A stretch of 1,015 bases of DNA from a phage. Below are positions 1 to 1,015 of the stretch, piece after piece. Where the stretch lies: the sequence record OR846551.1; one strand, given 5' to 3'. Made by a program: the position numbers. The first letter of the stretch is position 1. Each line of letters starts with the position of its first letter.

Positions 1-1015
1 GAGTAGATGCGGCGAACATCTCGCGCTTAGAAACGGGTAAGCAAAAACAATTTACCGAACAAACACTGAGTAATATTGCCAAGAGCTTAGGTGTTGATAT
101 TGCTGATCTCTTTACCTCTGCCCACAAAAGTAATACTGTATATAAAAACAGTAATAATGAGGATGTTGCGCAGGTGAAGGATGTGTTCCGTATTGAAATG
201 CTGGATGTCAGTGCCAGTGCGGGAAATGGCCTTATCCAGGGCGGTGATGTCATTGATGTGATTCATGCCATTGAATACAGAACTGATAATGCTGTATCGA
301 TGTTTGGCGGACGGCCAGCCAATCACATTAAAGTTATCAACGTTCGTGGGGACAGTATGTGTCCAACCATTGAGCCAGGAGATCTCATCTTCGTTGATGT
401 CAGTATCAATCAGTTTGATGGTGATGGTATCTATGTATTTGGTTTTGATGATAAAATTTATGTCAAACGACTTCAAATGATTCCTGACAAACTGCTGGTG
501 ATTTCTGATAACCAGATTTACCGTGAATGGGGAATTACCAGCGAAAATGAACACCGATTCATGGTCTTTGGAAAGGTCTTAATCAGTCAGTCGCAAACCC
601 TTAAGAGACATAATTAACCTCAATATCCCATCCATCGGCCACCGAAAGGTGGCTTTTTATTACCTATAAATTTGCATATCTCGCAAATACCACTTGCATA
701 TCTCGCAATTTAATTTTATCTTTTATTCCAGACCAACTACAGGATTACAACAAAATCTGGTTGCAACACGGTGCATGTGTCGTAAGCAGTCAGTAAATGT
801 CAAAAACGAACAGGCAGGACGCCCACGAAGTAGCCGCCTGGGGCATATGAAGTCCAGGATGATTCGTTGAGTCATGTTGTGCCACTAGGCACTCATGTTA
901 AAGCAGGTGTATGAAATGAAAGTCCAGATTTTAAACAATAACTGTGAAGTCGTTTGGTCATACGACATAGCCGCCCCTGTAGATCAGAGCGGCGATAGCT
1001 GGACCAATGGGAAAC

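Follow-up and report, generated by a model that had tools for sequence, protein, structure and literature searches.

A conserved three-way-junction leader RNA of enterobacterial phages with a possible put-like role

The immunity region and its early-left leader

The stretch of phage DNA studied here (OR846551.1), hereafter called the window, comprises 1,015 bases of a lambdoid immunity region, which in BLAST comparisons is 97.9% identical to Shigella phage SfII over 1-957 and is matched over its full length by an Escherichia coli O157:H7 prophage at 98.4% identity. The subject of this study is an element of 64 nt at 805-868, located in the leader between the repressor gene and the first early-left gene, which is shown by covariation among homologous copies to be a structured RNA with a three-way junction on the plus (sense) strand. 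An earlier note on the same DNA had singled out a hairpin at 873-897 within this leader; the interest lies instead in the leader's GC-rich island, extended to 805-868, where the conserved covarying structure is found. The features recognized in the window are as follows.

1..617, plus strand: 3' part of a CI-like repressor gene with an S24 peptidase domain (Pfam PF00717, E = 2e-19), annotated as cI in SfII
637..654, plus strand: intrinsic terminator after cI, GGCCACCGAAAGGTGGCT then TTTTATT (terminator scan), annotated in SfII
672-686 and 694-708, no strand assigned: two perfect 15-bp operator-like inverted repeats, TTGCATATCTCGCAA (OL)
694..722, plus strand: candidate early-left promoter (pL), inferred and weak (7/12), with -35 TTGCAT at 694-699, a 17-nt spacer and -10 TATCTT at 717-722
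805..868, plus strand: conserved three-way-junction leader RNA, whole motif (mosaic block, covariation, covariance model 91.2 bits, no Rfam match)
873..897, plus strand: local module-specific hairpin (-11.5 kcal/mol, z = -2.63), with an in-frame ATG (895-897) inside its 3' arm
905..1015, plus strand: Shine-Dalgarno sequence AGGTG (905-909) and start of the first early-left gene, ATG at 916 (product MKVQILNNN...), of PHROG 3195, a family without an assigned function

BLAST comparisons revealed a mosaic arrangement. Positions 1-777, which run from cI through the terminator and operators into the leader, are common to one set of phages including mEp460 and Stx2a phages, 802-1015 are common to SfV, and in a third phage set the block of about 64 nt at 805-868 is conserved alone between unrelated flanks. 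The GC-rich island noted earlier was readily confirmed, 40-nt segments between 800 and 859 having a GC content of 0.575-0.65 compared with 0.275-0.475 in the flanks. The description of the leader as long and structured proved accurate locally only, since 723-915 taken as a whole is no more stable than its shuffles (z = +0.14).

The operator-like motif TTGCATATCTCGCAA also occurs twice, in a degenerate form, in the cI-cro gap of SfII (OR; 4063-4077 and 4111-4125), giving four matches against 0.39 expected, and the repeats in the window are therefore considered to be operators. A weak third copy was seen at 771-785 of the window. The candidate pL overlaps the second operator (694-708), and this promoter region is kept in phage mEp460. 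It was absent from the output of a consensus promoter scan of the window; TTGCAT-17-TATCTT is treated as a plausible candidate, and the previously proposed leader length of about 190 nt is right only if this candidate is real. An alternative promoter, TTGCAA (761)-N16-TAAGCA, was ruled out by a 7-nt insertion in its spacer in mEp460. The first early-left gene is not annotated in the SfII record. The PHROG 3195 profile reaches 7 residues upstream of the start at 916, which fits a start at the ATG at 895 (98 aa versus 91), and judging from this match the true start codon may be 895 rather than 916.

Fold and covariation of the element

The structure was derived from an almost ungapped alignment of 86 distinct viral copies, in which the following parts were distinguished, all on the plus strand.

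805..810: 5' strand of helix P1, pairing with 863-868; five of the six pairs changed on both sides, with up to five pair types
811..836: J1/2 (CAGG) and the nearly invariant P2 region including GCCCACGAAGUAGC; invariant columns
837..858: P3 hairpin, 5-bp stem 837-841/854-858 with a conserved 12-nt loop GGCAUAUGAAGU; five of five pairs compensatory
859..862: J3/1, AUGA; three of the four columns (859, 861 and 862) invariant or nearly so
863..868: 3' strand of P1; covariation

Across these copies the proposed pairing holds in 94.6% of the cells, compared with 70.5% in shuffles, and 10 of the 14 pairs have changed on both sides. The covariation score was 0.607, against 0.171 for shuffles and no more than 0.131 for any slid register. 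A second, independent set of 37 genomes, from differing species of Enterobacterales, was 93.6% paired with a covariation score of 0.614, and RNAalifold on its own recovered P1 and the 5-bp P3. It is unlikely, given the ungapped alignment, that the covariation is an alignment artefact.

The variation in the alignment is concentrated in helices P1 and P3 and is compensatory. P1 takes the forms (A/G)CGAA with UUCG(U/C), GUCAUC with GAUGAC, CCACC with GGUGG, GGAAC with GUUCC and CAAAC with UUUG. At least eight different sequences occur in the P3 stem, with C-G to U-A changes at 837/858 and 838/857, the pairs that use the GG of GGAUGA. Nearly invariant nucleotides lie between the helices, namely CAGG, the P2 region with GCCCACGAAGUAGC, the P3 loop GGCAUAYGAA and AUGA. 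Two pairings are available to P2: either 815/836 together with 817-818/834-835, where the only changes are from G-C to G-U, or the GGC/GCC mini-hairpin 813-815/821-823 given by RNAalifold, in the loop of which all indels would fall. This region hardly varies, and both pairings agree with the alignment.

A reading of the block as something other than an RNA element, that is, as a short coding sequence, a DNA site for a protein or a recombination linker, could draw on the hypothetical protein annotated over it in some records, on the open reading frames of 58 and 50 aa that overlap it and on its location exactly at mosaic junctions. The copies differ from one another by 1- and 2-nt indels, however, so the block is considered non-coding, and its conservation across different immunity types argues against an operator. 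The helices are kept by compensatory changes and their G-U pairs are strand-specific: those in P1, P2 and P3 would be A-C on the other strand, which identifies the sense strand as the functional one. Such a reading is hardly credible and is already largely refuted by the indels and the covariation. With a sense-strand site in a 5' leader and helices showing compensatory substitutions, the element has the general features of a structured cis-regulatory leader RNA.

The hairpin at 873-897 does form as described earlier (CAUG/CAUG and GUGCC-ACUA-GGCAC), only 2 of 200 shuffles being as stable. It is confined to the downstream module common with SfV, where it occurs in three near-identical variants (a U/C change in the loop and a G-to-U change that breaks a stem pair), and is missing where the same downstream gene has a different upstream region. 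Comparison of homologues, which yielded compensatory changes for 805-868, gave none among these three variants of the hairpin. The suggestion made in the earlier note, that the leader carries a functional RNA element with a sequence different from nut, was upheld for 805-868; the hairpin that the note highlighted is not the conserved feature. No U-run follows the hairpin, which is therefore not a terminator. It is a separate, module-specific feature adjoining the ribosome-binding site, and a local effect on translation initiation is possible but unsupported. The RNase III hairpin of the lambda N leader likewise lies just upstream of a ribosome-binding site, but with 4 + 5 bp the hairpin at 873-897 falls short of the length of a typical RNase III substrate and is found in one module only.

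Two minor sequence features overlap the element. The invariant core ACGAAGTAGCCGCC (825-838) recurs with 12 of 14 positions identical as ACGACATAGCCGCC at 962-975 inside the downstream gene; this is probably a coincidence, about 0.26 such pairs being estimated to occur by chance. On the minus strand, the complement of the P2 region at 810-826, together with an A-run at 802-806, scores as terminator-like. The A-run is not conserved in other copies, so the site is unlikely to be a feature of the family.

Distribution and genomic context

A sensitive search found the block 805-868 in 51 phage records from 11 genera, with hosts in Escherichia, Shigella, Salmonella, Yersinia, Klebsiella, Citrobacter, Pectobacterium, Pantoea, Providencia and Aeromonas. 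The invariant 14-mer GCCCACGAAGTAGC identified about 95 true copies in viral contigs, along with chance matches that were easily separated. When a single genome was scanned for each bacterial species, at least 37 more copies came to light, which belong to Enterobacterales except for one record labelled Chryseobacterium. This record (Chryseobacterium sp. 18061; L220, 2213-2292; 83.5 bits) holds the sole copy outside Enterobacterales and Aeromonas phages, and probably reflects assembly contamination or mislabelling. Amongst complete E. coli genomes 1864 of 5426 carry the element; in K-12 derivatives it lies in prophage e14 between ymfK (cohE) and ymfJ. It was also found in the T5-like Providencia phages PR1 and PSTCR5. 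None of the records examined has an RNA annotated at the element.

The element is an exchangeable accessory module that travels as a mosaic block. Degenerate copies were observed as well, one without the P3 hairpin (L015) and others cut within or after P2/P3 by recombination junctions (L034 and L096). Xenorhabdus bharatensis (L151, L205) has two copies on one contig, about 16.8 kb apart on the same strand.

In ten annotated temperate phages and e14, the element was found to share the strand of the repressor gene and to lie behind it, or behind further genes that come after the repressor, and to head the early-left genes, which include kil, a recE-type exonuclease, xis/int and others. Most loci have a near-consensus sigma-70 promoter, the -10 hexamer of which ends 12-23 nt before P1 (in e14 the promoter is TTGACA-16-CATAAT, 11/12), so that the element would start at about +6 to +16 of the transcript. 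In PR1 it is placed inside the terminal repeat, ahead of the pre-early genes A2 and A1, and a -10-like hexamer ends about 15 nt before P1 in both PR1 and PSTCR5. The genes that come first after the element fall into numerous unrelated PHROGs or into no PHROG at all, and no N-type antiterminator was found among them, which suggests that whatever the invariant loops recognise must be shared by all hosts.

In 16 of 102 contexts the element is followed, no more than 31 nt away, by a perfect rrn-type boxA (GCUCUUUAACAA), compared with a background of 0.014 per 300 nt, and the contexts that bear it represent two unrelated downstream modules, including that of T5-like phages. The form GCUCUUUAACAAU, which comes after a hairpin in relatives, matches the rrn boxA. 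A boxA of the form GCTCTTTAACAAT or CGCTCTTTAAAAAT was found 12-45 nt after the element in L080, L021, L067, L074 and others, and 6-20 nt after it in L008 and L084; in one of the two modules it is preceded by a hairpin, AAGCGCCCTACAGGACGCTT. The occurrence of an rrn-type boxA behind the element in these contexts ties such leaders to Nus-type antitermination.

Other conserved sequences were noticed behind the element. The classes with CCACC and UCAUC in P1 (L010, 2582-2737, and many viral contigs) have a conserved leader, UUAACGCGCAKCAGGUG, after the element, and a small basic open reading frame (MFRWPAIRQTRVRMIDFARKP...; PHROGs 22279 and 31129) whose start lies about 24 nt beyond P1, or about 57 nt if an internal start is used. 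A common N-terminal domain of about 42 aa is encoded by the first gene after the element in e14 (YmfJ; L134, 3593-3901), Yersinia phage YeP1 (L004, 2600-2860) and Aeromonas phage pAEv1818 (L009, 2663-2938); this YmfJ-like domain corresponds to PHROGs 12693, 30817 and 2982 and does not occur in the class to which the window belongs.

Possible function and comparison with known systems

The kind of location is known, but the RNA motif is new, and the element has no match among catalogued RNA families. Rfam 15 gave no match in 723-915 at E values up to 10, nor any at the element in six related loci at the gathering threshold. No description of the element was found in the searchable literature, whether under the sequence of the invariant core or under e14/ymfJ, SfV/ST64B or put-like RNAs.

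The favoured explanation, to which a probability of roughly 0.4 is given, is that the element is a cis-acting antitermination or anti-pausing RNA comparable to the put RNAs of phage HK022. The RNA of 805-868 would be made as part of the early-left (pL) transcript and would fold on leaving RNA polymerase, with the variable P1 and the variable 5-bp stem of P3 holding the almost invariant unpaired nucleotides together. The folded element would then bind a partner which we infer to be a conserved component of the host, the elongating polymerase itself being the most likely candidate, so that in cis the transcription of an N-less early-left operon would resist pausing and Rho-dependent or intrinsic termination. 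In some relatives this action may be combined with an rrn-type boxA. The element would therefore do the work of the HK022 put RNAs with a fold unrelated to theirs.

In the N-less lambdoid phage that carries it, the put RNA lies close to the promoter, binds to the polymerase during elongation and suppresses both pausing and termination (PMC9378689; PMC12360218). No other RNA-only processive antiterminator is mentioned in a review of Rho-dependent termination from 2025 (PMC12360218). The put RNA acts in cis without phage proteins via the beta' zinc-binding domain and is blocked by mutations in the zinc-binding domain of rpoC. Like HK022 put and the putL-like RNA of HK639, the element is a structured RNA of about 65-70 nt near the promoter of an early operon in an N-less lambdoid phage. 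Both are islands of about this size that move between phages, are conserved across phages of several enterobacterial genera and have no dedicated phage protein nearby. The position is also similar, since put is annotated next to pL, with putL starting at about +3 of the pL transcript (PMC9378689), and the element starts at about +6 to +16 in most relatives.

The likeness does not extend to homology, which was considered and rejected. After HK022 putL and putR had been located by the numbering in PMC9378689, their alignment with the element was found to share only CGAAC.G and GGAUGA, at structurally non-equivalent positions; the GGAUGA hexamer is common to both, but its GG is base-paired in the element. 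Members of the put family form a V of two stem-loops in which U28, G35 and residues of stem II are conserved, a description that the element does not fit, and a boxA accompanies the element in some relatives, unlike put. A blastn search with putL returned 21 records, including HK75, HK639 and phiEt88, with zero overlap with the 51 records bearing the element.

The distribution of the element amongst the Shigella serotype-converting phages is complementary to that of N. SfII, SfV and SfIV have been reported to lack N, which is present in SfI, Sf6 and SfX (PMC3851460). The former three carry the element and the latter three were not among the 51 records matched; a search with PHROG profiles also found no N-like family among the early genes of SfII. 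This complementarity, the putL-like position, the disjoint sets of phages with put and with the element, the boxA after the element in 16 of 102 contexts and the location ahead of the pre-early genes of PR1 are circumstantial evidence for a put-like role.

The element may instead be the binding site of a trans-acting protein, either an unrecognised N-like phage factor or a host RNA-binding protein, which would control antitermination, translation or decay of the pL mRNA in a nut-like manner with the three-way junction replacing boxB. Specific recognition is suggested by the invariant unpaired nucleotides, the boxA directly downstream in two modules recalls a nut or rrn arrangement, and the YmfJ-like N-terminal domain recurs in the first genes of e14, YeP1 and pAEv1818. 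As with lambda nut, the element occupies the leader between pL and the first early-left gene, and boxA adjoins it in some relatives. The window itself lacks boxA, as the earlier note had stated: neither GCTCTTTA nor CGCUCUUA or GCUCUUUA had a match in 723-915 with up to one mismatch. The window also has no boxB-type 5-bp hairpin with a GNRA-like pentaloop and no N gene, its first gene belonging to PHROG 3195. Where boxA is present it follows the element, which is the reverse of the order in lambda.

No protein family is consistently adjacent to the element, the first genes being in differing PHROGs or in none, and no N-like protein was found in SfII (PMC3851460). Moreover, the element is exchanged independently of both flanks, and a distant phage partner would have to travel with it through mosaic exchange. 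A protein-binding site of this kind is regarded as unlikely.

A hairpin followed by boxA, as seen in some relatives, is also the order in the rrn leader (boxB-boxA-boxC; NusB/E, SuhB), but the hairpin-boxA module does not occur in the window and rrn has no counterpart of the 64-nt element. The eps-associated RNA (EAR) and similar leaders are conserved structured RNAs at the start of long operons that have been proposed to make polymerase resistant to termination. EAR differs from the element in phylum, fold and context, and Rfam gave no match. Resemblances to the RfaH ops element, the hammerhead core, CsrA sites and the type I-F CRISPR repeat were seen by eye and rejected, as they are partial and the key bases are paired or mismatched.

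Another possibility is a trans-acting or decoy RNA, a 5' fragment released by termination or processing that would titrate a host small RNA, a nuclease or a defence system early in infection. The element would be the first RNA made after induction or infection, it is present ahead of the pre-early genes in lytic T5-like phages, one common downstream module has a hairpin a few nt after it, and prophage-encoded anti-small RNAs provide a precedent (PMC4104026). The window, e14 and most other contexts nevertheless have no terminator after the element and a ribosome-binding site follows 20-60 nt later, while the hairpin of the terminator-like module precedes boxA and not a U-run. The known anti-small RNAs of enterohaemorrhagic E. 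coli, AgvB and AsxR, map downstream of pR', at a different locus, and were ruled out as identities for the element. The discrete small RNA envisaged in the earlier note was likewise not borne out as a terminated product, as a terminator scan found no plus-strand terminator in 805-1015, where a ribosome-binding site and a gene follow the element. A decoy role is given a somewhat lower probability than a protein-binding site.

Little weight is given to a riboswitch-like sensor, in which the junction would bind a small molecule or ion reporting on host physiology and tune early-left expression. The element does show what is usual for an aptamer, being a compact three-way junction within a 5' leader in which the helices vary and the nucleotides of the junction and loops do not. 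There is, however, no conserved expression platform, as the sequence after P1 varies by module and does not overlap P1; no Rfam riboswitch matched even at E values up to 10; and the downstream genes are functionally unrelated. Equally slight is the probability of a 5'-proximal stabiliser, the fold of which would protect the pL mRNA from decay dependent on its 5' end. The start of the element some 6-16 nt from the predicted transcription start in most relatives is in keeping with this, but a stem alone would suffice for such protection, the roughly 30 invariant unpaired nucleotides kept from Aeromonas phages to Escherichia would not be needed, and in the window some 77 nt separate the element from the presumed start.

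Several observations weigh against the put-like explanation preferred here. The window is atypical, for with some 77 nt between the presumed start and P1 the element is not at the 5' end of its transcript. Terminator scans of the early-left operons of SfII and e14 showed no strong intrinsic terminators on the plus strand, and the need for antitermination is therefore not demonstrated. The covariance model of the element does not match HK022 putL or putR, and the three-way junction closed by P1 is unlike the two open stems of put. HK022 has put copies in both early operons (putL and putR), whereas a filter-free covariance-model search of the whole SfII genome found a single copy of the element (91.2 bits, the next score being 9.2 bits) and none on the pR side. 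The phages mEp460, Stx2a_1447 and 1720a-02 have the same cI-pL module without the element and without an annotated N, so the element appears dispensable for that module. A self-sufficient element would also make the boxA of some relatives partly redundant. Finally, the fold energy of 795-870 is unremarkable (z = -0.70), and from the alignments the support for the structure is evolutionary rather than a matter of thermodynamic stability.

The put RNA is a key model for how a nascent RNA reprograms RNA polymerase, and a second class would, if true, represent an independent solution. It is doubtful, though less so than any of the alternatives above, that the element is such a class in the strict sense, i.e. 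an antiterminator or anti-pausing RNA that is structurally unrelated to put, acts independently of protein factors and binds directly to E. coli RNA polymerase. If it were, the class would be far more widespread than put, with an unrelated fold and a representative in the K-12 prophage e14, and its carriers would be roughly one in three complete E. coli genomes, prophages throughout Enterobacterales and T5-like phages. Such a class would explain early-left expression in N-less lambdoid phages of the SfV/ST64B/e14 type, and could account for early expression in N-less lambdoid prophages including the serotype-converting Shigella phages and O157:H7 prophages. Even with another mechanism, the element merits an Rfam entry, as an RNA motif so far unannotated that has a well-defined genomic context and the support of unusually strong covariation.

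Some further features were recorded elsewhere in the same genomes. A conserved region further down the early-left operon was found in e14 (ymfH; L134, 4297-4608), SfII (SfII_35; L002, 5668-6006) and mEp460 (L136, about 2400-2840). It is annotated as protein, yet SfII_35 matches no PHROG, and the region is rich in hairpins and T-runs, is present also in phages without the element, and may be non-coding. Rfam matches comprised a C4 antisense RNA and an isrK RNA in the right arm of ST64B (L003, 242-329 and 354-430) and a tRNA downstream of the element in one viral contig (L080, 1369-1441).

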